Positions 2 to 42,677 of a DNA stretch of 64,000 nucleotides are shown piece after piece. Position 1 is the stretch's first letter, and each line of letters begins with the position of its first letter. The position numbers and the translations under genes are program-made. The notes under the pieces are model-generated. The model was not told the origin of the DNA and made no database searches. It was given only the letters and a program-made list of their open reading frames with translations. Source of the DNA: Planctomycetota bacterium (lineage in GTDB: Bacteria; Planctomycetota; UBA1135; UBA2386); the NCBI GenBank assembly GCA_016713175.1, contig JADJPQ010000009.1, positions 249,652-313,651 on the forward strand. Direction: 5' to 3'.

Positions 2-178
2 TGGGACACCGCGATCAACAAGATCATGTTTCTGGGGTCGTTCCTGTTCCTGTCGCTGCTGTTCGCGTTCACGTTGGCTGATCAGGCGACGCGCTCCTGG
101 GACGGTCCGATCTCGGTGCAGAGAGCCCCGGTCGCTGAGCAGTGGCATCACCCGGCGCTGGCCGACAAGAAGCCCTAG
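2..178 (+). CDS. 3' end of a membrane protein, probably cytochrome c oxidase subunit IV (COX4_pro/CoxD) family (partial)
   Basis: Frame 2 reads WDTAINKIMFLGSFLFLSLLFAFTLAD...KKP* (stop 176-178); hydrophobic helix resembles the C-terminus of prokaryotic COX IV. Confidence 0.5.
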   Translation, partial: WDTAINKIMFLGSFLFLSLLFAFTLADQATRSWDGPISVQRAPVAEQWHHPALADKKP

Positions 179-3042
179 TCCTGGACGCCGCCTACCTCCA
201 CGCCCGCCAGCCCGCGGACGCTCGGATCGCCCTGTGGTGCGATCCCGATCGCCAGGCTTTGCTCGCCGCGCTGCCTCCGGAACTGGCCGCGCGGTCGGAG
301 CCATTGGACCTGCAGATCCTGTTGGGTAGTGAAGAGTCGTCGCTGCGGCCGGTCCATGCGGCGCGCGAAGACGACGACGACGAACGCAGCCAGGCACGGA
401 TCGCACCCGCACTGTGGACGATCCCGGCCACCGGCCTCCACCTCGTCGATGCGATCGCGTGGCTCTGCAGCCTCGACCCCGCTGCAGCCTCCCCGAGCCT
501 ACGCGTGCTGATCGGCGCCGCCCGACTCGCGCGCGCGTTGGTCAACCGTGGCGACTTCGGCCCGGCGCCGCAACCCGGAGTGCTCCGCTGGGCAGCGCAC
601 TGGCAGACCGACACGCAATGGGCGCTCGCTGCCCTTGCCGAGATCATGCCGGGCTCGCTGACGACCGCTCGTAACGCCGTCCCCGACGATCCGGTCTATT
701 CGGTCACACCGCGCAATCTGCTGGTCAGTCTGATCGGGCACGCCGTCGACCAGCTCGCCGCGACCGCCAGCACCCAGCCGGGTCGCTTCCCGAAGGCCGA
801 GCGGCTGCCGAAGGAGTTCTGGCAGACCCAGATGTCGCCGGTCCTCGAGATCCTGGTGCCCGAACGGCCGCTCGAAGAAGGCGTGCCGTGGGCGCTGCAG
901 ATTCTGGTCCGCCCGATCCCGACGATCCCGCTGACCGAGACCGCCGAGTCCCTGCACCAGCGCATCGCCAGCTGTCCGTTCCCGAGCGAGCTGGCGCGTG
1001 AGTCCCTGCAGCGCGTCGAACTGACCATCGAACGGATGGCCGAGAAACTGCCGCCACTGCGTCGCGCCAAGAACATGAGCGACGGCAAGGCGAGCCTGAC
1101 CCGGCAGGAGCTCGACCAGATCCTCGACCACCTGCCGATGCTCGAATCCGAGGGTTTCGAGCTGTTGCTGCCGGGCGTCGAGTCGATGCAACGGCTGACG
1201 GCCCGGGTGACCCTGTCGGAGGTCAAGGGCCAAGGCGACACGCCGCGGCCGTGGTTCGAGTTCAAGTGGAGCCTGGCCATCGGCGATGTCGAGCTCAGCA
1301 CCACCGAATTCAACCAGCTCGTCGATGCGCGCACGCCGCTAGTGTTCCTCGACCGCCGCCCGGTGCTGTTGTCGCCCAAGGACCGGGAAGCGCTGCAGGA
1401 GTTCAAGAAGCGCCTGAAGGAAGGCGGCGAACGGATCAGCTTCTTCGAGGCTCTCCGCCTGCGGCTCGGCGGCGCCTCGCACCTGCACGGCCTGGCGATG
1501 GAGACGATCGCCAGCACACCTCGCCTGGAAGCGCTGCTGCAGAACCTCGAACGCGCCCGCGGCGTCGAGAACCGCGAACTGCCGCCGACGTTCGTCGGCG
1601 AGCTGCGCCCGTATCAACAGCGCGGCCACGCCTGGATGTACTACCTGGTCGACCAGGGCTTTGGCGCCTGCCTCGCCGACGACATGGGTCTGGGCAAGAC
1701 CGTCCAGGCGATCGCCGTGATGCTCGACTGGCGGCGCAAGGAAGGCCGCACCGGCGCGCTGCTGATCGTCTGCCCGGTCTCCGTCCTCGGCAACTGGCGG
1801 CGCGAGATCAACCGCTTCGCGCCCGAACTGCGCGTCGTGCTGCACCACGGCAAGACCCGCGCCGAGACCACCGAGGACTTCCACAAGACCCTCGCCAACT
1901 CCGACATCGTGCTGACCAGCTACAACCTGCTGCAGCGCGACGAGGAGATGATGACCTCGGTGACCTTCGAGGGCGTGTTGCTCGACGAAGCGCAGAACAT
2001 CAAGAACCCGACCACCAAGCAGTCCAAGGTCGCCCGCACGCTCAAGGGCAACTTCCGGATGACGCTGACCGGCACGCCGCTCGAGAACCGGCCGCTCGAC
2101 CTGTGGTCGATCATGGACTTCCTCAACGAAGGCCTGCTCGGCTCGCGCACGCAGTTCCTGCAGACGCTCGAACACCCGATCGTCAAGCAGCGCAAGGCCA
2201 GTTCGATGTCGGCCTTGGCGCGCCTGGTGCGGCCGTTCGTGTTGCGCCGCCTGAAGACCGATCCGGAGATCGTCGCCGACCTGCCGGAGAAGACCGAACA
2301 GATCGTCGCCGCGACAATCAGCCGCGAACAGGCGATCCTCTACGAGTCCGTGGTCCGCAAGGGTCTGCAGGAGGTCGAGAAGGCCGCTGAGGGCATCCAG
2401 CGCCGTGGCGCGATCCTGACGACGTTGCTCCGCCTGAAGCAGGTCTGCAACCACCCCGCGCACTACCTGATGGACGGCAGCGCGTTGCACGCGCGCTCGG
2501 GCAAGCTGGATCTGTTGTCCGAGATGCTCGAGGAGGCGATCGAGGAGGGCGACCGCTGCCTGGTGTTCACGCAGTTCAAGGAGATGGGGTCGTTGCTGAA
2601 GACCCACATCGAGGACTCGCTGAAGCAGTCGGTGTTGTTCCTGCACGGCGGTGTCGCGCAGAAGGACCGCGACGACATGGTCGCCAACTTCCAGGAGTCG
2701 CGGCCCGACGGTCCGAAGGTGTTCGTGTTGTCGCTGAAGGCCGGCGGCACCGGCCTGAACCTGACCGCCGCCAATCGCGTGTTCCACTACGACCGGTGGT
2801 GGAATCCGGCCGTCGAGGATCAGGCCACCGACCGCGCGTTCCGCATCGGTCAGCTGCGCAACGTCTTCGTGCACAAGTTCGTCTGCACCGGCACGCTCGA
2901 GGAACGCATCCAGCAGATGCTCGAACGCAAACGCGAGGTCGCTGACAACCTGCTCGCCGCCGGCGAGAACTGGATCACCGAGCTCAGCAACGACGAACTG
3001 AAGCGGCTGCTGACGCTCGATCGCAAGGAGGCACTGGCGTGA
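142..3042 (+). CDS. SNF2/SWI2-family helicase-like ATPase
   Basis: Motifs LADDMGLGKT, LDEAQNIKN, LTGTPLEN, LRRLK, LLRLKQVCNHP, SLKAGGTGLNL, DRWWNPAVEDQATDRAFRIGQ; start uncertain (overlaps upstream gene). Confidence 0.95.
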   Translation: MASPGAGRQEALVLDAAYLHARQPADARIALWCDPDRQALLAALPPELAARSEPLDLQILLGSEESSLRPVHAAREDDDDERSQARIAPALWTIPATGLHLVDAIAWLCSLDPAAASPSLRVLIGAARLARALVNRGDFGPAPQPGVLRWAAHWQTDTQWALAALAEIMPGSLTTARNAVPDDPVYSVTPRNLLVSLIGHAVDQLAATASTQPGRFPKAERLPKEFWQTQMSPVLEILVPERPLEEGVPWALQILVRPIPTIPLTETAESLHQRIASCPFPSELARESLQRVELTIERMAEKLPPLRRAKNMSDGKASLTRQELDQILDHLPMLESEGFELLLPGVESMQRLTARVTLSEVKGQGDTPRPWFEFKWSLAIGDVELSTTEFNQLVDARTPLVFLDRRPVLLSPKDREALQEFKKRLKEGGERISFFEALRLRLGGASHLHGLAMETIASTPRLEALLQNLERARGVENRELPPTFVGELRPYQQRGHAWMYYLVDQGFGACLADDMGLGKTVQAIAVMLDWRRKEGRTGALLIVCPVSVLGNWRREINRFAPELRVVLHHGKTRAETTEDFHKTLANSDIVLTSYNLLQRDEEMMTSVTFEGVLLDEAQNIKNPTTKQSKVARTLKGNFRMTLTGTPLENRPLDLWSIMDFLNEGLLGSRTQFLQTLEHPIVKQRKASSMSALARLVRPFVLRRLKTDPEIVADLPEKTEQIVAATISREQAILYESVVRKGLQEVEKAAEGIQRRGAILTTLLRLKQVCNHPAHYLMDGSALHARSGKLDLLSEMLEEAIEEGDRCLVFTQFKEMGSLLKTHIEDSLKQSVLFLHGGVAQKDRDDMVANFQESRPDGPKVFVLSLKAGGTGLNLTAANRVFHYDRWWNPAVEDQATDRAFRIGQLRNVFVHKFVCTGTLEERIQQMLERKREVADNLLAAGENWITELSNDELKRLLTLDRKEALA

Positions 3043-3752
3043 ACGAACGCAAAGCCGTGTCCCTGGGCGAACGTTGGCGCCGCGAAGCGACGCGCGGGAT
3101 CGACGACAAGCGCTTTGCCGCGGCTCTGGAAGCGCTACCAGCGATCCGCAAGCCGATGGTCCGCATCCGCCCCGGTGGCATCCGCGCCGAGATGGAGGGC
3201 GCGATGGGCAGCATCCACGAGGTGGCGCTGCACATCCGGACGTTGCCCAACAAGGACCTGCCGACCGTCATCCGTGTGCTCCGCCGCAGCCGGTCGATCG
3301 TCGACGCGCTCGAGAACGGCCGGGTGACGCGATCGTTCGATCGCCTGGTCGCCCGCATCGTCGGCGAACCGTTGTTCCCGGACTCCCGCCGGGTCACCTT
3401 CGGGTGCTCGTGCGATCTGCCGGACAAGCCGTGCCGGCACGTGCTGGCACTGCACGAACTGTTTGCCCGGCGCCTCGATGAGAAGCCGTGGGAACTGCTG
3501 ACGCTGCGCGGTCTCGATCTGCACGACCTGCTGGCCAAGGTGAAGCAGTCGGCGCCGGATCCGGACCAGCCACCGCTCGCCTTCGGCGCACCGGAAGAGC
3601 CCGTCCTCTACCCGGAAGCCGAGGACGCTGACCTGGAGTCGCCGATGACGCCAGCGCAGGTCCGCTGGCTGCTCGGCACCGTGCCGCAACGGTTCGTCGA
3701 TGCGGCATTTGCGGCGCTGCAGCGTCTGGAGTCGCCGCCACCGGCCAAGTAG
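3039..3752 (+). CDS. SWIM zinc-finger protein
   Basis: CSCDLPDKPCRH (CxC-xn-CxH) motif; GTGA overlap with the SNF2 stop; SNF2-SWIM gene pairs are well known. Confidence 0.88.
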   Translation: MNERKAVSLGERWRREATRGIDDKRFAAALEALPAIRKPMVRIRPGGIRAEMEGAMGSIHEVALHIRTLPNKDLPTVIRVLRRSRSIVDALENGRVTRSFDRLVARIVGEPLFPDSRRVTFGCSCDLPDKPCRHVLALHELFARRLDEKPWELLTLRGLDLHDLLAKVKQSAPDPDQPPLAFGAPEEPVLYPEAEDADLESPMTPAQVRWLLGTVPQRFVDAAFAALQRLESPPPAK

Positions 3753-3775
3753 CGTCTTTCGCCACATTCTCGCTC

Positions 3776-3832
3776 AAGGGTGCAGCTCCGGCATGGGCGC
3801 TGCAGGTTTCCGGATGGTCGGGCCGCCATCCG
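3776..3832 (+). promoter_or_regulatory. Riboswitch candidate, nhaA-I-like (Li+/Na+) motif
   Basis: GGGTG leader; P1 TGCAGC(3781-3786)/GCTGCA(3799-3804); AGGTTT linker; P2 CGGATGG(3811-3817)/CCATCCG(3826-3832) with loop TCGGGCCG; directly 5' of RBS GGAGG (3838-3842) of a cation/H+ antiporter. Match to nhaA-I is from memory. Confidence 0.62.
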
Positions 3833-3847
3833 AACCCGGAGGCTCTC

Positions 3848-5254
3848 TTGATCGGTCTCGACCCCTCGACCGTGACGGCAACCGTCACTGCCGGCGAACT
3901 GCAGCGCTTGGACTTCACCGCGAGCGGCCTCGGCCTGGCCGCCCTGGCGATCTTCGTGTTCGCCTATTTGCTCGTCGTGCTCGAGGAACGGCTGCATCTG
4001 CGGAAGAGCAAGCCCGTGGTCATCGCCGCCGGGGTGCTGTGGATCCTGGTCGCGATCGCCTACGCCGGGCACCCGGACGCCGCGTCGATGCCGCACAACC
4101 ATCTCGAGCAACGCGTGCTGCACTACGCCGGCGAGTACGGCGCGCTGTTCCTGTTCCTGATGGTGGCGATGACCTACATCTCGACCATCGCCGCCCACAA
4201 CGTGTTCTTGTGGCTGAACGGCTGGCTGGTGTCGCGCGGCTTCTCGCTGCGCGCGGTCTACTGGGCGACCGGCACGCTGGCGTTCTGCATCTCACCCGTC
4301 GCCGACAACCTGACGACCGCGCTGTTGATGGGCGCGGTCGCGATCGCGGTCGGCCATGGCAATGTCAAGTTCCTGGCGGCAGCGTGCACCAACATCGTGA
4401 TCGCGGCCAACGCCGGTGGCGCGTTCTCGCCGTTCGGCGACATCACGACGCTGATGGTCTGGCAGGCCGGCAAGGTGCACACGATGGAGTTCTTCAAGCT
4501 CCTGGTGCCGTCGTTGGTCAATTGGCTGGTGCCGGCGGTGATCATGCACTTCACGGTTCCGCAGGGCCGACCCGCAGCCCGGCAGCAGAGCGTTCCTCTC
4601 GAGCCTGGGTGGTGGGTGGTGATCGTGTTGTTCCTGGCGACGATCGTCACTGCCGTGACGTTCCACGCCGCGCTCCATCTGCCGCCGTTCCTGGGGATGA
4701 CCACCGGGCTTGGCTACTTCTTCCTCTACGGCTGGTTTCGCCATCTGCAGCACAAGCGCAACCTGACCGACCGGCCCTTCGATGCGTTCAAGGCCGTGGC
4801 CGAGGTCGAGTGGGACACGATGCTGTTCTTTTTCGGTGTGATCCTGTGTGTCGGCGCCCTGCAGGAGCTGATGTTCCTGCACAAGGCCAATGCCTGGCTC
4901 TATGACCCTGTCGCGGGCCTCGGCGCAACCTGGGCCAACATCGGTATCGGTCTTCTCAGCGCCCTGATCGACAACGTGCCGGTCATGTTTGCGGTCCTGG
5001 GCATGAGCCCGACCATGGATCCGCTGGCCCCGGGTCTTCTGCACACCCCCATGGCGGACTACCAGTGGTTGCTGGTGACCCTGACCGCCGGTGTCGGAGG
5101 CTCCCTGTTGTCGGTCGGTTCGGCCGCCGGCGTGGCGCTGATGGGCTCGGCTCACGGCATATACACCTTTGGCCGTCACCTCCGATTCCTGCCCGCCATC
5201 GCGCTCGGCTACGCTGCTTCGATTGCCACGCACTGGTGGATGAACGCGCCCTGA
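3848..5254 (+). CDS. nhaD: Na+/H+ antiporter, NhaD family (copy 1)
   Basis: Multi-TM; KSKPV, SPVADNLTTALL, ANAGGAFSPFGDITTLMVW, DNVP, GGSLLSVGSAAGVALMG; TTG start with GGAGG RBS. Confidence 0.92.
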   Translation: MIGLDPSTVTATVTAGELQRLDFTASGLGLAALAIFVFAYLLVVLEERLHLRKSKPVVIAAGVLWILVAIAYAGHPDAASMPHNHLEQRVLHYAGEYGALFLFLMVAMTYISTIAAHNVFLWLNGWLVSRGFSLRAVYWATGTLAFCISPVADNLTTALLMGAVAIAVGHGNVKFLAAACTNIVIAANAGGAFSPFGDITTLMVWQAGKVHTMEFFKLLVPSLVNWLVPAVIMHFTVPQGRPAARQQSVPLEPGWWVVIVLFLATIVTAVTFHAALHLPPFLGMTTGLGYFFLYGWFRHLQHKRNLTDRPFDAFKAVAEVEWDTMLFFFGVILCVGALQELMFLHKANAWLYDPVAGLGATWANIGIGLLSALIDNVPVMFAVLGMSPTMDPLAPGLLHTPMADYQWLLVTLTAGVGGSLLSVGSAAGVALMGSAHGIYTFGRHLRFLPAIALGYAASIATHWWMNAP

Positions 5255-5331
5255 TCCGGTGAAAATTCGACCGCGGCCCAGGTCCGCGGCACGGAATGTG
5301 AACAGTGGCTGATGAACGTTCGTAACGGCGC

Positions 5332-6801
5332 GTGTCGATCCTGGACTGCGCGGCTCCGGCGCCGGATCCTTCCGCGACCCCTCTCCGGTCCGGCGCTCCC
5401 AGCCAGACCCTGTTCAGCCCTTCCGGTCGCGTGCTCAACTCCCTGGTCGACGGTGCCCAGTTCGACCTGACCAACACGCCGCTCGGCATCGCCGCGCTGA
5501 TCGTGTTCGTCGGGGCCTATTTGTTGGTCGTGCTCGAAGAGCGCATCAAGCTCCGGAAGTCGAAGCCGGTGCTGCTCGGGGCCGCGATCCTGTGGATCCT
5601 GACCTCGATCGGCCTGCAGCAGCAGCCGAACGTCACCGGCGAACTGATCGAACAGAGGGTCAGCCACTACATCGCCGAGTACGGCGCACTGTTCCTCTTC
5701 CTGATGGTGGCGATGACCTACATCTCCGCCATCGCTGCGCACAATGTGTTCTTGAAGCTGAACGCGTGGCTGGTGGCCTCCGGCTATGGCTACCGCGCGG
5801 TGTTCTGGGCCACGGGCATCCTGGCGTTCTGGATCTCGCCGGTCGCCGACAACATGACCACTGCACTGCTGATGGGTGCGGTCGTCGTCGCCGTCGGCAA
5901 GGGCGACATGCGCTTCATCGCGCCGAGCTGCTGCAGCATCGTGATCGCCGCGAATGCCGGCGGCGCGTTCTCGCCGTTCGGTGACATCACGACCCTGATG
6001 GTGTGGGCCGAGGACAAGGTGCACACGGCCGAGTTCCTCAAACTGCTGCCGGCGTGCATCGTCAACTGGCTGGTGCCGGCCGCGATCATGCACTTCTGGA
6101 TCCCTGACGAGAAACCCAAGCCACTGCAACATGAAGTCCAGCTGAAGAAGGGCTGGGCCGTCGTCATCGGCCTGTTCCTGGCGACGATCGTCACCGCCGT
6201 GCTCTTCCACATGTACCTGCACCTGCCGCCGGCGCTCGGCATGACGATGGGGCTGGGCTACTACTTCATCTACGGCTGGCTGAGCATCCGCGCCTACCAC
6301 AAGAAGCGCATTGCCGAACCGCTCGACGTGTTCAAGAACGTTGCCGAGGTCGAGTGGGACACGATGTTGTTCTTCTTCGGCGTGATCTTGTGTGTCGGTG
6401 CGCTGCGCGAACTGGGCTTCCTGGCGCTCGCCAGCCATGCGCTCTACGACCCGGTGTCAGGCGTGGGCGCGACCTGGGCCAACATCGGGATGGGGGTGCT
6501 ATCGGCGGTGGTCGACAACGTGCCGCTGATGTTCGCGGTGCTCAGCATGAATCCGCCGATGGACCCGGCGATGCCAGCGGACGTCACGCACACAGCGACC
6601 TCGGTCTACCAGTGGCTGCTGATCACGCTGACCTGCGGCACCGGCGGCTCCTTGCTATCGGTCGGATCGGCCGCGGGTGTTGCCTTGATGGGCAGTGCCC
6701 ACGGAATGTACACGTTCGTCAGCCACTTGAAGTGGCTGCCGGCGATCGCTGCCGGGTATGCCGCCAGCATCCTGGTGCACTGGCTGCTGAATGCGGCATA
6801 A
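5332..6801 (+). CDS. nhaD: Na+/H+ antiporter, NhaD family (copy 2)
   Basis: Same motif set (SPVADNMTTALL, ANAGGAFSPFGDITTLMVW, VDNVP, GGSLLSVGSAAG); start uncertain. Confidence 0.92.
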   Translation: MSILDCAAPAPDPSATPLRSGAPSQTLFSPSGRVLNSLVDGAQFDLTNTPLGIAALIVFVGAYLLVVLEERIKLRKSKPVLLGAAILWILTSIGLQQQPNVTGELIEQRVSHYIAEYGALFLFLMVAMTYISAIAAHNVFLKLNAWLVASGYGYRAVFWATGILAFWISPVADNMTTALLMGAVVVAVGKGDMRFIAPSCCSIVIAANAGGAFSPFGDITTLMVWAEDKVHTAEFLKLLPACIVNWLVPAAIMHFWIPDEKPKPLQHEVQLKKGWAVVIGLFLATIVTAVLFHMYLHLPPALGMTMGLGYYFIYGWLSIRAYHKKRIAEPLDVFKNVAEVEWDTMLFFFGVILCVGALRELGFLALASHALYDPVSGVGATWANIGMGVLSAVVDNVPLMFAVLSMNPPMDPAMPADVTHTATSVYQWLLITLTCGTGGSLLSVGSAAGVALMGSAHGMYTFVSHLKWLPAIAAGYAASILVHWLLNAA

Positions 6802-6876
6802 CGCCTCACTTCGCGCCTGACTGTCGGTCGATAGGTCACCCGGCTGCGCCAACCGGCGCATCGACGAGGGAGACCA

Positions 6877-8235
6877 GTGTTCGGATTCTTCTACGACATG
6901 ATGGCGGTGGCCGGCTCGCCGCACGCGTGGTTCGCGGTGGGCGTGTTCGCCGTCGCGTATCTGCTGGTGGTGCTCGAGGACAAGATCCACCTGCGCAAGA
7001 GCAAGCCGGTGCTGGCGGCCGCGGGCGTCATCTGGGTGCTGGTCGCCTACGCCTTCCGGCACGTGCCCGACGTCGACGAGCACTACCTCGAGGACCGGCT
7101 GCTCGGACATGTCGGTGAGTACGGCGCGCTGTTCCTGTTCCTGATGGTGGCGATGGCCTACCTGTCGGCGATCAGCAAGCACAACGTGTTCCTGCGGTTG
7201 AACGCGGTGCTGATCTCCGCCGGCTTCGGCATGCGAACGCTGTACTGGACGCTCGGCGGCCTGGCGTTCTTCATCTCGCCGATCTGCGACAACATGACGA
7301 CCGCGCTGCTGATGGGATCGGTCGCGATCGCCGTCAGCCAGGGCAACAAACGCTTCGTCGCTGTTTGCTGCAGTAGCATCGTCGTCGCTGCCAACGCCGG
7401 CGGCGTGTTCTCGCCGTTCGGCGACATCACGTCGCTGATGGTCTGGCAGGCTGGCAAGGTCGACACCGGACACTTCCTGAAGCTGTTCGTGCCGAGCCTG
7501 GTGAACTGGTTGGTGCCAGCCATCGTGATGAGCTTCACCGTGCCGAAGGACAAACCGGCGCCGTTGTCGGAACGGGTGTCGCTGAAGCCTGGCTGGTGGG
7601 TCGTGTGCAGTCTGTTCCTGGCAACGATCGGCACCGCGGTGTTCTTCTACCACTCCTTGCACCTGCCGCCGTTCCTCGGCATGACGTCGGGACTGGCCTA
7701 CTACTTCGTCTACGCCTACGTCCGCAACTGGAACCACAAGCACAAGCAGCTCGGCGAACCGCTGGATGTGTTCGCCGACGTCGCCACCGTCGAGTGGGAT
7801 GCGATGCTGTTCTTCTTCGGCGTGATGATGTGTGTCGGCGGTCTGACCGAGCTCGGGGTGATGGCGAAGCTGTCGGGCTGGCTGTACTCGGACCAGGTCG
7901 GGCCGTTCTATGCCAACGTCGGCATCGGCGTCGCGTCGGCGTTGATCGACAACGTGTCGTTGATGTTCGCGGTGCTCAACATGGACCCGAACATGGGCAC
8001 CGGCGAGCGTGGTCAGTACTACTGGGAACTGCTGACCCTGACTGCTGGTACCGGCGGTTCGCTGCTGTCGATCGGCAGTGCCGCCGGCGTCAGCCTGATG
8101 GGCCTCAGCAAAGGCAGGTTCACCTTCGGCGATCACCTGCGCTGGTTCCCGGCGATCCTCGCGGGGTTCTGCGCCAGCGTGATCGTACACTGGTGGCTCA
8201 ACTCGCCACCCTCGCTGCCCGGCGGCGCGCAGTAG
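6877..8235 (+). CDS. nhaD: Na+/H+ antiporter, NhaD family (copy 3, most divergent)
   Basis: SPICDNMTTALL, ANAGGVFSPFGDITSLMVW, IDNVS, GGSLLSIGSAAG; RBS GAGGGAG before GTG. Confidence 0.9.
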   Translation: MFGFFYDMMAVAGSPHAWFAVGVFAVAYLLVVLEDKIHLRKSKPVLAAAGVIWVLVAYAFRHVPDVDEHYLEDRLLGHVGEYGALFLFLMVAMAYLSAISKHNVFLRLNAVLISAGFGMRTLYWTLGGLAFFISPICDNMTTALLMGSVAIAVSQGNKRFVAVCCSSIVVAANAGGVFSPFGDITSLMVWQAGKVDTGHFLKLFVPSLVNWLVPAIVMSFTVPKDKPAPLSERVSLKPGWWVVCSLFLATIGTAVFFYHSLHLPPFLGMTSGLAYYFVYAYVRNWNHKHKQLGEPLDVFADVATVEWDAMLFFFGVMMCVGGLTELGVMAKLSGWLYSDQVGPFYANVGIGVASALIDNVSLMFAVLNMDPNMGTGERGQYYWELLTLTAGTGGSLLSIGSAAGVSLMGLSKGRFTFGDHLRWFPAILAGFCASVIVHWWLNSPPSLPGGAQ

Positions 8236-8262
8236 CGCGGCCGCCCGCGCCGCCCTCGCGCG

Positions 8263-9660
8263 CTACTTGCCGAGTTCCTTGACTTCCTTGACCATGCCCT
8301 CGAGCGCTTCCTTGGCATCGAGGAACACCATCAGGCAGTTGTCGCGCTCGAACAGCGGGTTCTTGATGCCGGCATAGCCCGGCGCCAGCGAGCGCTTGAT
8401 GACGACGACCGTGCGCGCGTGGTCGACATCGAGGATCGGCATGCCGGCGATCGGGCCGGTGGCCTCGCGCGCGGCGGGGTTCACCACGTCATTGGCGCCG
8501 ACGATGATCACGACGTCGGTGTTCTTGAAGTCGCTGTTGATGCGATCCATCTCCCACAGCTGGTCGTACGGAACGTCCGACTCGGCGAGCAGCACGTTCA
8601 TGTGCCCGGGCATGCGTCCGGCGACCGGGTGGATCGCGTAGCGGACGTTGGCGCCGCGTTTGATCAGCAGTTCGCCGAGTTCGCGGATCGTGTGCTGCGC
8701 CTGCGCGACGGCGAGGCCATAGCCGGGCACCATGATCACCGACGCGGCGCCGTCGAGCAGCATCGCGACCTCCTCGGGCGTCGTCGACTTGATCGACTTG
8801 TAGTCCTTGGCATCCTTGGCGACCGACTCCTCGCCCATGCCGCCGAGCAGCACGTTGCCGAGCGAACGGTTCATCGCCTTGCACATGATCTGCGTCAGGA
8901 TGATGCCCGACGTGCCGACCAGGGCGCCGACGACCACCAGCATCGGGTTGCCGATCACGAAGCCCGAAGCAGAGCCGGCCATGCCGGAGTAGCTGTTGAG
9001 CAGCGACACGACGACCGGCATGTCGGCGCCGCCGATCGGCATGACCAGGAACACACCGAGAACGAGCGCCAGCACGCTCAGCAGGATCGTCGCGGTGGTC
9101 AGACCGGCCGCTGACGTCGCGATCACCTGCCAGTAGGAGCAGCCGATGATACCGACCGCGATCGCCGCATGCAGATAGTGTCGGGCCGTGCCTTTCAACG
9201 GATGGGACAGCTTCTTGCCGCCGAGTTTGAAGAACGCGATGAAGCTGCCCGTCAGCGTCACCAGGCCGATCAGGATCGTGATCGGCGTGCTGATCGCGTT
9301 GACCAGACCGGTGTCGGCCAGACACTTGTCCGCCTGGTGCATCACCGGATGCTCGAGGATCGCCGCGAGCGCGACGAACGCCGAGGCGGCGCCGCCCAGG
9401 CCGTTCAGCGCCGCAACCATCTCGGGCATCTGCGTCGTCGGGGTCTTGACCGCAACCCAGACACCGACGCCGCCGCCGACCAGCAGACCGCCGATCAACG
9501 CCCACCAACTGATGTTGCCGGTCGCCGCCAGCACCGTGACGACCGCCAGCAGCATGGCGATCTCGGAGATCTTGTTGCCGCGCTGACAGGTCTTGACGCT
9601 GGTCAGGTTCTTGATGCCGACGACGAACAGCAGCGTGGCCAGGAGATAGAGGTAGTCCAC
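8263..9660 (-). CDS. pntB: NAD(P) transhydrogenase beta subunit
   Basis: MPEMVAALNGLGG, IGGADMPVVVSLLNSYSG, VPGYGLAVAQAQ, HPVAGRMPGHMNVLLAE, GANDVVNPAA. Confidence 0.97.
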   Translation of the reverse strand: MDYLYLLATLLFVVGIKNLTSVKTCQRGNKISEIAMLLAVVTVLAATGNISWWALIGGLLVGGGVGVWVAVKTPTTQMPEMVAALNGLGGAASAFVALAAILEHPVMHQADKCLADTGLVNAISTPITILIGLVTLTGSFIAFFKLGGKKLSHPLKGTARHYLHAAIAVGIIGCSYWQVIATSAAGLTTATILLSVLALVLGVFLVMPIGGADMPVVVSLLNSYSGMAGSASGFVIGNPMLVVVGALVGTSGIILTQIMCKAMNRSLGNVLLGGMGEESVAKDAKDYKSIKSTTPEEVAMLLDGAASVIMVPGYGLAVAQAQHTIRELGELLIKRGANVRYAIHPVAGRMPGHMNVLLAESDVPYDQLWEMDRINSDFKNTDVVIIVGANDVVNPAAREATGPIAGMPILDVDHARTVVVIKRSLAPGYAGIKNPLFERDNCLMVFLDAKEALEGMVKEVKELGK

Positions 9661-40731: not shown

Positions 40732-42606
40732 TCATTCCGGTCTCGTGCCGCTCGTAGGCTGCTCCCCGCTGCCGGGTAACGTCACCGGCGATGGGCCGGG
40801 ACCCGGCGCCGACTTGCGAGAACTGCGATCCGGCCAGTCCAACCATTGCCGTCGCAACCGCACGGCAGGTTCGGGCGCCGCATCGAGAACCTCGAGCCCG
40901 ATCGTGCCGACTGGTGGTTCGGTTGGCGTGACCACACGCTCGAGGATTCGACCACGCGACGCGATCAGGACGCGGAGGCTCCTGCCCACCGCGGCGATCG
41001 TGCCAAACACCTCGGACCAGGAAGCGGACTGAACGCGAATCCCATCCAAGCCGAGAATCTCGTCGCCGGGCGCCAGCCCGGCGGCAAGAGCGGGTCCATC
41101 GTCGTTGACGAAACTGATCCTCGTCGAGTCGTCGGCGAAGGCGAGCCCAAGGTACGGCCGGTCGCGGTCGCGGTTCGTCAATTCGATGCCGAACGACAGC
41201 AACAACGGTCGCAGTTCCGGGTCCAGACTGCCCCGAACCAGCGAATCGACCGTGGTTGCCATGTCGCGACGAGCGGCTTCGGACAACGCCGCCACGACAT
41301 CGGCATGAGTGTAGCCACGCCCGGCAAGGAACGTCGTCCGGTACAGGATGCGCAGGGCGTCGTCGAGGCTCGCACCGCCGTCGGTGGCCTGGCGTATCAT
41401 CAGGTCGAGAACCAGCGCGGCGATCGAGCCGTTGACGTAGTAATTCTGCGTCGAGTTGCGCGTGTTCTCGTCGGGGCGATACAGCCGGATCCAGGCATCG
41501 AAACTCGAATCTGCCAGCGACTGCTTGAAGCGGCCCATCGAACCGAACACGGTGCCGATGCTCTTGGCCAGCAAGGCCAGGTAATCACTGCGCGAGATCA
41601 CGCCGGCGCGCAGACACAGCAGGTCGTCGTAGTACGCCGTGAAGCCTTCGGCGAGCCACAGCATCGGCGTGTAGTTCTCGACTTCGTAGTCGTAGTCCCA
41701 CAACTCGCGCGGTCGCATCCGCTTCACGTTCCAGACGTGGAAGAACTCGTGGGCGCACAGCGACAGGAACTGTTGGTATCCCTTGCCTGGCCGCATCGCC
41801 GTGCGCGCGGCCAACAGCGTCGTCGAATCGGCGTGCTCGAGGCCGCCGTGGCCACTCTCGGTGAACAAGCAGTGGAACTGGTAGCTTGCGTACGGCAATT
41901 GGCCGCCGAACACGTCACTGGCACGCTCGAGGATTGCGGTCAGGTCGTCGAGGAATGACGCCGGCGCGCACACCCCGTTCAGGCCCTCGAGGATCACGCT
42001 GTGCGGAACGCCGCGCAGCAGCCAGTCGAGCCTGGTGAAGACTCCAGCCAGGCACGGCGAATCCATGGCGTGATCGAGGTCGTTCGCCGACAACACGATC
42101 TCGTCGCGATGGGCGGCCGGGCCGTCGATCCGCGACAGGCTCGTCGCGAGTTGCCAGCCGGCTGGCAACAGCAGCGTGATCCTGGCCTTGCAGTCGCGTT
42201 GGCCGAGCGGCCAGAGCAGGACGCAGGCGTGGTTCCAGTACGCATGTTCTGGCGTTACGTCCGCGGTCCGGACCGACAGTTCGTGGGCGTAGACCTGGTA
42301 GGTGACGCGGATGCGGCGGACTTGTCCTGGCAGCGTCAATCGGAACCGGTTCTTGCTCACCTTCTGACACGGAATCGCGACGCCGGTGTGCGCGTCGGCG
42401 GCGGTCACTGCACTCAGATGGCGCGCATACTCGCGGATCAGATAGCTGCCTGGGGTCCAGGTTGGCAGGAACAAGGTCGCCTCGCCATCGGCAAGACCGG
42501 CAACCAAGGTATCCCGGCCGCATTCGAGCGTGACCAGGATCCGTCGCCGTTCGGGAGCTCGGAGGTCCAGCCTGAAGCTGAGTGGTTCCAAGGTCTTGGA
42601 TGGCAC
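40732..42606 (-). CDS. M61 family metallopeptidase with PDZ domain
   Basis: PTWTPGSYLIREY, GGLEH, HEFFH.WN.KR, WLAEGFTAYY, YYVNG, PDZ (AGLAPGDEI); start is GTG 42606 (inside tRNA) or TTG 42591. Confidence 0.92.
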   Translation of the reverse strand: MPSKTLEPLSFRLDLRAPERRRILVTLECGRDTLVAGLADGEATLFLPTWTPGSYLIREYARHLSAVTAADAHTGVAIPCQKVSKNRFRLTLPGQVRRIRVTYQVYAHELSVRTADVTPEHAYWNHACVLLWPLGQRDCKARITLLLPAGWQLATSLSRIDGPAAHRDEIVLSANDLDHAMDSPCLAGVFTRLDWLLRGVPHSVILEGLNGVCAPASFLDDLTAILERASDVFGGQLPYASYQFHCLFTESGHGGLEHADSTTLLAARTAMRPGKGYQQFLSLCAHEFFHVWNVKRMRPRELWDYDYEVENYTPMLWLAEGFTAYYDDLLCLRAGVISRSDYLALLAKSIGTVFGSMGRFKQSLADSSFDAWIRLYRPDENTRNSTQNYYVNGSIAALVLDLMIRQATDGGASLDDALRILYRTTFLAGRGYTHADVVAALSEAARRDMATTVDSLVRGSLDPELRPLLLSFGIELTNRDRDRPYLGLAFADDSTRISFVNDDGPALAAGLAPGDEILGLDGIRVQSASWSEVFGTIAAVGRSLRVLIASRGRILERVVTPTEPPVGTIGLEVLDAAPEPAVRLRRQWLDWPDRSSRKSAPGPGPSPVTLPGSGEQPTSGTRPE

Positions 42607-42677
42607 GCCCGAGAGGATTCGAACCTCTGACCTGCGGCTCCGGAGGCCGCCGCTCTATCCAGCTGAGCTACGGGCGC
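42601..42677 (-). tRNA. tRNA-Arg(CCG)
   Basis: GCGCCCGTAGCTCAGCTGGATAGAGCGGCGGCCTCCGGAGCCGCAGGTCAGAGGTTCGAATCCTCTCGGGCGTGCCA; anticodon loop CT-CCG-GA, TTCGAA T-loop, encoded CCA. Confidence 0.97.

Follow-up and report, generated by a model that had tools for sequence, protein, structure and literature searches.

The leader of a three-gene NhaD array contains a nhaA-I (Li+-I) riboswitch aptamer, most likely an ON switch that acts on translation. The array lies in the 64,000-nucleotide stretch of planctomycete DNA analysed here (the window), and the element at 3778-3831 is a genuine nhaA-I (Li+-I) aptamer, a member of an already described family. Its family membership, the covariation of its structure, its gene context and the absence of a terminator are direct results of the present analysis. 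The element is a correct but ordinary instance of its class and matters little beyond annotation, with a few modest points to add. Members of the class are rarely associated with nhaD, and the element adds a planctomycete case to these. In this genome NhaD genes and trehalose synthesis stand under the riboswitch and the nhaA genes do not, which bears on whether some Li+-I-type aptamers report Na+ or salt stress. Finally, the predicted OFF state, in which the whole start region would be held by both of the segments that flank P1, may provide a concrete model for the RBS-control mechanism proposed for the class, with a topology common to a validated member. The features discussed below are collected in Table 1.

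Table 1. Features of the riboswitch leader and the nhaD array, in window coordinates.
Feature	Positions	Strand	Basis and remarks
nhaA-I (Li+-I) aptamer, full length	3778..3831	+	RF03057 match
Unpaired 5' GGGU of the aptamer	3778..3781	+	GGGTG invariant in 33/33 planctomycete members
P1 hairpin	3782..3803	+	CM alignment; 8 model pairs, U-C mismatch at 3787/3798
Junction J1/2, AGGUUUCC	3804..3811	+	Conserved AGG and pyrimidine-rich linker UUUCC
P2 hairpin and loop	3812..3831	+	CM alignment; 7 bp
Helix A, 5' strand	3774..3780	+	Predicted OFF state; partner 3845-3851 including the start codon (MFE pair list)
Helix B, 5' strand	3805..3813	+	Predicted OFF state; partner 3836-3844, 9 bp
Translation initiation region (Shine-Dalgarno, spacer, TTG start)	3836..3851	+	MFE: each of the 16 nt base-pairs with the aptamer (predicted OFF state)
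nhaD1, Na+(Li+)/H+ antiporter, 468 aa	3848..5254	+	NF038006 NhaD_1 442 bits; PF03600
nhaD2, 489 aa	5332..6801	+	NF038006 451 bits; 67% identical to nhaD1
nhaD3, 452 aa	6877..8235	+	NF038006 435 bits; 60% identical to nhaD1

Class assignment and structure of the aptamer

In an Infernal search of the 64-kb window, the nhaA-I model (RF03057, Li+-I riboswitch) matches the forward strand at the aptamer with 55.6 bits and an E-value of 2.9e-8 (2.2e-9 in a 4.8-kb search). The alignment covers model positions 1-55 of 55, and the score stands 18.6 bits above the gathering score of 37 bits; with a model made from 33 planctomycete members, the same element scores 62.6 bits. A first-pass annotation of this DNA had called the family and proposed the Infernal/Rfam comparison, and the full-length match above the gathering score bears that call out. 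The two further models that it had named for comparison, DUF1646 and nhaA-II, give no hit even at E 10. Membership in the Na+-I (DUF1646) and Li+-II (nhaA-II) classes is rejected on this basis for the interval 3600-8400, where no cation-riboswitch model besides nhaA-I gives a match at E up to 10.

The structure is supported by covariation among the 33 planctomycete members, the window included. In P1 and P2 together, 91.9% of cells are paired, compared with 74.9% in shuffles, and 79 cells carry double changes; 0 of 500 shuffles come as high. These double changes fall in 11 of the 15 pairs (both-side changes in 7/8 P1 pairs, covariation in 4/7 P2 pairs), and slid controls are only 28-63% paired. 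The two hairpins drawn in the first-pass annotation correspond to P1 and P2 of the Rfam model, and its additional outer pairs, U3781-A3804 below P1 and C3811-G3832 below P2, are possible.

The sequence elements that it had picked out are also in place: GGGTG at 3778-3782, whose last base, G3782, begins P1; AGGTTT at 3804-3809, overlapping the junction motif GCAGGU at 3802-3807; and GGTCGGGCCGCC at 3816-3827. GGGTG, AGG and the 12-mer GGUCGGGCCGCC of the P2 loop (3816-3827, exact in 33/33 members) are invariant in all 33 planctomycete members and intact in the window, and the window's GGGUG, GCAGGU and loop motif agree with those of the validated members listed in PMC9646797 (Suppl. Table II). 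The D. propionicus homologue no longer responded once GG at the equivalent junction position was changed to AA (mutant M2; PMC9646797). An upstream ORF stops just 25 nt 5' of the aptamer. The leader is identical in 4 independent sludge metagenomes, and the coding region just downstream varies.

The nhaD array

The gene predicted to be directly controlled by the nhaA-I element is nhaD1. Its start is set at TTG 3848 because GGAGG lies at -10; the closest homologues begin near residue 14, which makes GTG 3872 an alternative start. The tandem array nhaD1-3 accounts for all NhaD genes of the genome. The NhaD genes anticipated downstream of the element are thus present in three copies (NF038006, 435-451 bits), and the planctomycete host that had been thought likely agrees with the closest NhaD homologues, which come from Planctomycetota MAGs. 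Li+ is a substrate of NhaD proteins alongside Na+ (PMC1552076).

No terminator-like site is found in the 77-nt nhaD1-nhaD2 or the 75-nt nhaD2-nhaD3 spacer, nor does either spacer match a riboswitch at E 10 with the Rfam cation-riboswitch models. nhaD2 and nhaD3 probably belong to one transcript with nhaD1, and we infer that riboswitch control extends to them. With spacers of 75-77 nt they are not translationally coupled to nhaD1, and coordinated control of nhaD1-3 would need a polarity or stability effect. In metatranscriptomes X15 and X19 the nhaD genes are covered by low-depth contig fragments only, one of which runs from 4742 to 5115 with a single mismatch. Of the fragments listed, which are the longest, not one reaches across the aptamer, and no 5' end is seen among them. 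A promoter scan that does not cover planctomycete promoters found no sigma-70-like promoter.

Expression platform and predicted OFF state

The leader is compact. The Shine-Dalgarno GGAGG (3838-3842) follows the end of P2 after a gap of 6 nt, and a further 5 nt separate it from the TTG start (3848-3850), which stands 16 nt past P2. Neither 3500-4100 nor the interval from the aptamer to nhaD1 contains an intrinsic terminator-like site.

The minimum free energy structure pairs GGG 3778-3780 with 3845-3847, and J1/2 with 3838-3844. In the unconstrained ensemble the helix B pairs have probabilities of 0.73-0.83 (~0.82), compared with 0.10-0.14 for the P2 pairs, and the unpaired probability of the start region is 0.01-0.19 in the free leader versus 0.07-0.84 with the aptamer enforced. 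The first-pass annotation had noticed that TTTCCGG (3807-3813) is complementary to CCGGAGG (3836-3842), and had taken this pairing to be mutually exclusive with P2. The complementarity is real and the helix extends to 9 bp. The exclusivity holds in part: helix B overlaps two basal P2 pairs (G3812, G3813), but what the alternative pairing mainly occupies is the conserved junction and, through helix A, the 5' GGG.

The helix-B state is favoured over the P2-state ensemble by only ~1.3 kcal/mol, a gap of the size to be expected of a weak-ligand switch. Enforcing P2 does not free the Shine-Dalgarno entirely, which then remains partly paired to 3854-3859. The leader fold overall is not unusually stable (z -0.62). 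A simple duplex test of the junction against the downstream 45 nt is not significant relative to shuffles (p 0.25 for the window, mean z -0.05 for the family). An integrated free-versus-aptamer energy test is marginal for the window (p 0.06 versus shuffles; p 0.05 with the Shine-Dalgarno and start codon fixed), and when the Shine-Dalgarno is fixed, a pairing to the aptamer as strong as the native one arises in 21% of shuffles. Over the 33 loci, downstream sequences are stronger competitors of the aptamer core than their shuffles (mean z -0.71 +/- 0.26). The tests suggest that OFF-state pairing at the window locus is only marginally better than chance. The predicted topology is common to this leader and the validated A. 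caulinodans (Azorhizobium) Li+-I reporter leader, in which the junction GCAGGU pairs with ACCUGC before the AUG. Expression platforms vary widely among the 33 planctomycete members, and in many of them an additional hairpin separates the Shine-Dalgarno from the aptamer.

We suggest the following model for the switch. Without the ion, the region from the Shine-Dalgarno to the TTG (3836-3851) would pair with two conserved single-stranded segments that flank P1, namely the junction segment GGUUUCCGG (3805-3813) and the 5' segment UCAAGGG (3774-3780), and ribosomes would be kept out; the linker UUUCC of J1/2 is predicted to act as an anti-Shine-Dalgarno. When cytoplasmic Li+ rises, both segments would join the folded aptamer together with P2. 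The start region would then be freed, NhaD1 would be made and the cation would be exported, and nhaD2 and nhaD3 would probably follow because they share the transcript of nhaD1. The earlier proposal that ligand binding frees the RBS and raises antiporter translation agrees with the ON-switch picture of PMC9646797 and appears compatible with the predicted folds. According to White et al. 2022 (PMC9646797), nhaA-I riboswitches as a class are ON switches, and 'most' are believed to regulate access to the RBS.

Comparison with known cation riboswitches

The window element resembles Li+-I riboswitches (nhaA-I, RF03057; Weinberg et al. 2017 PMC5737381; White et al. 2022 PMC9646797) in its two-hairpin build, 5' GGGUG, junction GCAGGU, P2 loop and specificity U. 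The likeness extends to its location, a terminator-free 5' leader ahead of a cation/proton antiporter gene, and to the Shine-Dalgarno directly 3' of P2, an arrangement also found in the validated members from A. caulinodans and P. monteilii. It differs in its target, a triple NhaD array instead of nhaA, and in its host, an activated-sludge planctomycete whose nhaA genes escape the riboswitch. Na+-I riboswitches (DUF1646 motif; White et al. 2022, PMC9337991) have a similar two-stem consensus, are ON switches and commonly control nhaD and other Na+ transporters. They differ, however, in which nucleotides of lower P1 and of the P2 loop are conserved, and the DUF1646 model has no match in the window element.

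The Na+-II riboswitch (variant nhaA-I, Desulfobulbus propionicus 'hypothetical' gene; White et al. 2022) has its family and overall fold in common with the window element, and is likewise a salt-related ON switch. It has C rather than U in the loop (AGCCGGGCCGCU) and carries an intrinsic terminator, and it has been reported from Deltaproteobacteria only. In the published sequences its 5' and junction motifs are GGGGUCC and GGAGGU, where the window has GGGUGC and GCAGGU. The position that discriminates Li+ from Na+ is U3818 in the window, the third base of GG[U]CGGG, to which the published C54U change (M4) maps. Since the C54-equivalent, the 5' and junction variant motifs and the terminator are all absent from the window element, membership in the terminator-type Na+-II class is rejected. 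Judged by its sequence, the ligand of the window aptamer is probably Li+.

Alternative explanations

We considered whether the same aptamer and ON logic might here serve Na+, or Na+ and Li+ alike, so that the element would be an arm of a salt-stress regulon and not a Li+ detoxification switch. We think this unlikely, although several observations speak for it. NhaD is a typical target of Na+-I riboswitches and a rare one of nhaA-I; the only other nhaA-I copy in the genome precedes an osmoprotectant (trehalose) operon; and both nhaA genes, the canonical Li+ exporters, are without a riboswitch. White et al. 2022 (PMC9646797) suggested that trehalose-associated members might sense Na+, and also found that the single C54U change yields a Na+-II RNA that responds to Li+, Na+ and NH4+, for which reason a U at position 54 is no guarantee of Li+ selectivity. 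On the other hand, wherever the published sequences show a discriminating feature, the window element has the Li+-I form (loop U, GGGUGC, GCAGGU and the G-C closing pair of P1), and validated U-type members are Li+-selective both in vivo and in vitro. Moreover, all Na+-II variants on record come from Deltaproteobacteria, carry terminators and precede hypothetical genes (PMC9646797), none of which applies to the window element.

Even with a functional aptamer, control might be exerted through Rho-dependent termination, mRNA decay or occlusion by a pairing different from the helix seen here. Three observations would fit such a scheme: the specific OFF-state helix is not significantly better than chance, expression platforms are diverse among the 33 planctomycete members, and nhaD2 and nhaD3, with their 75-77 nt spacers, are beyond translational coupling to nhaD1. 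We nevertheless rate it as quite improbable, given that the compact layout, with the Shine-Dalgarno 6 nt and the start 16 nt past P2, is that of the validated A. caulinodans translational fusion, that no terminator is found at the window locus, and that the two-state energy gap is within the range of a weak-ligand switch. A chance resemblance, or a decayed relic without function, is very improbable indeed. Its one point of support is that none of the sampled NhaD homologues has the aptamer upstream. It would have to be reconciled with an E-value of 2.9e-8 and a score 18.6 bits over the curated threshold, with invariant nucleotides that are all intact, with correct placement 16 nt before the start of a cation transporter, and with a leader that is unchanged in 4 independent sludge metagenomes while the adjoining coding region varies. 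A translational ON switch that answers Li+ remains our preferred reading of the element.

Distribution and the second genomic copy

Loci of NhaD homologues were scanned in two sets: 40 genome loci with the Rfam model, and then 65 NhaD-homologue or related loci plus the window with the 33-member planctomycete model. The only aptamers found in these scans are that of the window and the second copy in the same genome, and the aptamer occurs at 0 of ~87 NhaD-homologue loci. The first-pass annotation had made its reading depend on conservation of the loop sequence upstream of orthologues, and taken literally this count goes against it. The expectation is ill-posed, because the nhaA-I element stands ahead of many different salt-related genes. 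Association with nhaD is documented for 6 of 944 nhaA-I members.

The second nhaA-I copy of the host genome precedes a GH15/trehalase-like gene and an OtsA-OtsB fusion (the trehalose operon), and neither of the two nhaA genes is under a nhaA-I riboswitch. This pattern is compatible with a general salt signal as well as with Li+. It is conceivable, though in our estimation doubtful, that U-type nhaA-I aptamers of this lineage, indistinguishable in sequence from Li+-I, are general cytoplasmic Na+/salt sensors. They would then wire a two-locus regulon of the triple NhaD array and the trehalase-like/OtsA-OtsB operon, and the nhaA genes would not be under a riboswitch. In that case, Na+ sensing by the nhaA-I fold would reach well past the C54, terminator-bearing, deltaproteobacterial definition of Na+-II, and the 'Li+-I' label would be no predictor of ligand.

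In Planctomycetota the class is present in 32 of 401 sampled genomes, mostly ahead of other salt-related genes. The commonest planctomycete target is an unannotated membrane protein of ~110 aa.

The leader of the nhaD array carries a Li+-I riboswitch

Searched with all 4227 Rfam families at their curated thresholds, the whole window returned two matches, nhaA-I (RF03057) and one tRNA. The nhaA-I match (3778-3831, forward strand) spans model positions 1-55 of 55, the full length, and reaches 55.6 bits where the gathering score is 37 (E 2.9e-8), which bears out the identity that the first-pass annotation had proposed. Its element positions (GGGTG, two hairpins, AGGTTT, GGTCGGGCCGCC, GGAGG, the TTG start, and the complementary stretches TTTCCGG, 3807-3813, and CCGGAGG, 3836-3842) were likewise recovered when the sequence was read back. 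In a permissive search of 3600-8400 with E up to 10, nhaA-I was the sole cation-related match; the DUF1646 (Na+-I) and nhaA-II (Li+-II) models were unmatched, and the spacers between the nhaD genes gave zero Rfam matches. Comparative genomics revealed RNAs of this kind (Weinberg et al. 2017, PMC5737381), and White et al. (2022, PMC9646797) validated them as ON riboswitches that respond to Li+, the class 'Li+-I'. The window element is a new instance of this known class and belongs to neither Na+-I nor Li+-II. The tRNA gene lies at 42604-42677 on the reverse strand (66.7 bits); its anticodon loop, CUCCGGA, reads by eye as CCG (Arg).

Features of the riboswitch locus and related loci (G000, the window's own genome; L-numbers, sampled loci)
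Feature	Position	Strand	Basis or remark
5' motif GGGTG	3778-3782	+	sequence reading
P1, first hairpin	closing pair 3782/3803	+	sequence reading
AGGTTT	3804-3809	+	sequence reading
P2, second hairpin	closing pair 3812/3831	+	sequence reading
P2 loop motif GGTCGGGCCGCC	3816-3827	+	sequence reading
Shine-Dalgarno GGAGG	3838-3842	+	sequence reading
TTG start, 468-codon frame	3848	+	ORF reading
Helix A, 7 bp	3774-3780 with 3845-3851		predicted fold; covers TTG start and conserved 5' GGG
Helix B, 9 bp	3805-3813 with 3836-3844		predicted fold; covers Shine-Dalgarno and junction GG
SNF2-family helicase	142-3042		upstream of aptamer
Unannotated ORF	3039-3752	+	between SNF2 helicase and riboswitch
nhaD1, NhaD antiporter	3848-5254	+	NF038006 442 bits; PF03600
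nhaD2, NhaD antiporter	5332-6801	+	NF038006 451 bits; PF03600
nhaD3, NhaD antiporter	6877-8235	+	NF038006 435 bits; PF03600
Second nhaA-I copy	G000:C1:633251-633301 (L098 752-802)		family model, 42.4 bits
GH15/trehalase-like gene	L098 771-2642		at second copy
OtsA-OtsB fusion	L098 2633-4822		follows GH15/trehalase-like gene
nhaA	G000:C10:5822-7072	-	PF06965, 445 bits
nhaA	G000:C26:310370-311377	+	PF06965, 378 bits
~110-aa membrane protein	L010, L072, L074, L075, L077-L079, L081, L083, L084, L087, L090, L092, L096		first ORF past aptamer

Of the 401 Planctomycetota genomes sampled, 32 have hits above the threshold of the family model. Across an alignment of 33 planctomycete aptamers, GGGTG, AGG and GGTCGGGCCGCC are invariant, and P1 and P2 are free to vary yet keep their pairing: standard pairs fill 91.9% of cells (74.9% in column shuffles) and 79 cells are double changes (24 in shuffles), values that 0 of 500 shuffles reached. 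With the 3' partners shifted by 1-3 columns, pairing was only 28-63%.

We compared the aptamer with the Li+-I and Na+-II sequences in Supplementary Table II of White et al. (PMC9646797). There, validated Li+-I RNAs read GGGUGC...GCAGGUU...GGUCGGGCCGCC, and the Na+-responsive D. propionicus variant, 'Na+-II', reads ...GGGGUCC...GGAGGUU...AGCCGGGCCGCU; Na+-II members, reported only from Deltaproteobacteria, carry intrinsic terminators, and the specificity-broadening mutation M4 (C54U) was made in this RNA. It falls at the third base of GG[U]CGGG. The window aptamer, by contrast, has GGGUGC, GCAGGU and U3818, a P1 closed by G-C, and no terminator-like site at its leader. By sequence, these features set it apart from Na+-II and make it a Li+-I member.

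Predicted sequestration of the start region

Most members are thought to govern ribosome access, a control whose structure was not demonstrated (White et al., PMC9646797). In the window, the Shine-Dalgarno starts 7 nt past P2 (6 nt between) and the start codon 17 nt past it (16 between). At minimum energy, 3765-3870 is predicted to retain P1 and to form helices A and B as well, which would jointly bury the entire initiation region. Folded without constraints, the RNA shows helix B with a probability of ~0.82 and P2 with ~0.14, and the helix-B ensemble is favored over the P2-containing one by just 1.3 kcal/mol, a predicted balance that a weakly binding ion could tip. Burial of the Shine-Dalgarno, as first proposed, is retained in the predicted fold, but its mutual exclusivity with P2 holds only in part, because helix B overlaps only the two basal P2 pairs; the start region would thus compete less with P2 than with the conserved single-stranded core. 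The junction GG is essential in a homologue, where mutant M2 (GG to AA) lost its response (PMC9646797). The A. caulinodans leader, a validated translational reporter, has the same predicted topology: its GCAGGU junction pairs with ACCUGC directly before AUG, with P2 nested inside. The first-pass reading of the element is thus supported as to identity, and its mechanism, like that of the class, is plausible.

We regard the case for OFF-state pairing of the start region as weak to moderate. Stability of the whole leader's fold is unexceptional (z -0.62), and a duplex test of the junction against downstream sequence fell short of significance, with p 0.25 for the window and a mean z of -0.05 for the family. 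The free energy lost on keeping the aptamer core free, with the 39 nt downstream dinucleotide-shuffled as control, was -12.6 kcal/mol in the window against -7.9 +/- 2.9 (p 0.06), with a family-wide mean z of -0.71 +/- 0.26. Holding the Shine-Dalgarno and start codon constant places the native value at the 5% tail; with the Shine-Dalgarno fixed, 21% of shuffles match the native strength of its pairing to the aptamer. Four sludge metagenomes held no leader sequence variants, and no homologous leader was found elsewhere. Over 3700-3960, three sludge metagenomes differ from the window at 3910 (G>C, third codon position) and 3926 (G>A, Gly27Ser) only, the riboswitch leader being invariant. GTG 3872 might be an alternative start, because the nearest homologues start near residue 14, whereas TTG 3848 is the sole candidate with a Shine-Dalgarno.

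Gene context and wiring

The three NhaD proteins share 56-67% pairwise identity and are the only ones encoded in the 7.9-Mb assembly. Their closest homologues come from Planctomycetota MAGs, which places the window in that phylum, and activated-sludge and wastewater metagenomes hold near-identical DNA. NhaD proteins transport Li+ besides Na+ (PMC1552076). As a riboswitch target nhaD is rare, yet already published (6 of 944 nhaA-I associations). Neither the 77-nt nor the 75-nt nhaD spacer contains a terminator-like site. A GC-rich hairpin between nhaD1 and nhaD2 (CCGCGG-N7-CCGCGG, 5271-5289, no U tail) may serve in mRNA stability or processing. Metatranscriptome contigs cover the nhaD genes at low level, with nothing usable for the leader among the pieces listed. 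The aptamer begins 25 nt past the unannotated ORF, which means that the promoter is inside that ORF or that upstream transcription reads through into the leader; a scan for sigma-70-like sites found none. The ORF and the helicase share 4 nt at the helicase stop. At 3405-3440 the ORF has a CxC-x6-CxH motif of SWIM-like type (CSCDLPDKPCRH), and it has zero Pfam matches at E 0.001.

Conservation of the aptamer upstream of NhaD orthologues, a check named in the first-pass annotation but ill-suited to an element that precedes a variety of salt-related genes, did not emerge. The aptamer was absent within 3 kb upstream at all 40 genome loci that carry the nearest homologues of NhaD1 (17 Planctomycetota, identity up to 73%), at 29 metagenome loci and at the remaining genome loci. 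Of the 33 nhaA-I loci from planctomycetes, the window's alone has a true NhaD 3' of the aptamer. The association is sporadic. The triple array is also unusual among sampled loci; two metagenome contigs with NhaD1 homologues (L099, L100) have two tandem NhaD genes each, and the others one.

The same genome holds a second nhaA-I copy, ahead of a GH15/trehalase-like gene and a trehalose-6-phosphate synthase/phosphatase (OtsA-OtsB) fusion, an arrangement with an orthologue in another sampled genome (G033, L012). Upstream of its two nhaA genes (L128, L129), Rfam searches gave zero riboswitch matches even at E 1; nhaA is the gene that this class canonically controls, yet in this genome it lies outside that control. 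This wiring, with the NhaD array and trehalose operon in and nhaA out, is the least ordinary feature of the system. It leaves room for U-type aptamers like the window's to report Na+ or salt stress, not Li+ specifically, and White et al. (PMC9646797) left such sensing possible for trehalose-associated members; we consider it unlikely and favor the Li+-I assignment to which the aptamer's sequence points.

Genes after other planctomycete aptamers include NhaA (PF06965), Na_H_antiport_3 (PF07399), distant CitMHS-type transporters, GH15/trehalase-like genes, radical-SAM (KamA-like) genes and glycosyltransferases. The commonest target (~14 of 33) is a membrane protein of 105-120 aa, conserved but unannotated and without a Pfam match, with the motif GC-x-x-R-x-x-W-x3-GN ... 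D-x2-YW ... R-x-VDI ... G-x-PAT-x3-WRRY (alignment A2). In two planctomycete genomes (L076, L082), the first ORF past the aptamer is a radical-SAM protein resembling lysine 2,3-aminomutase, which hints at a beta-lysine-type osmolyte pathway under riboswitch control.
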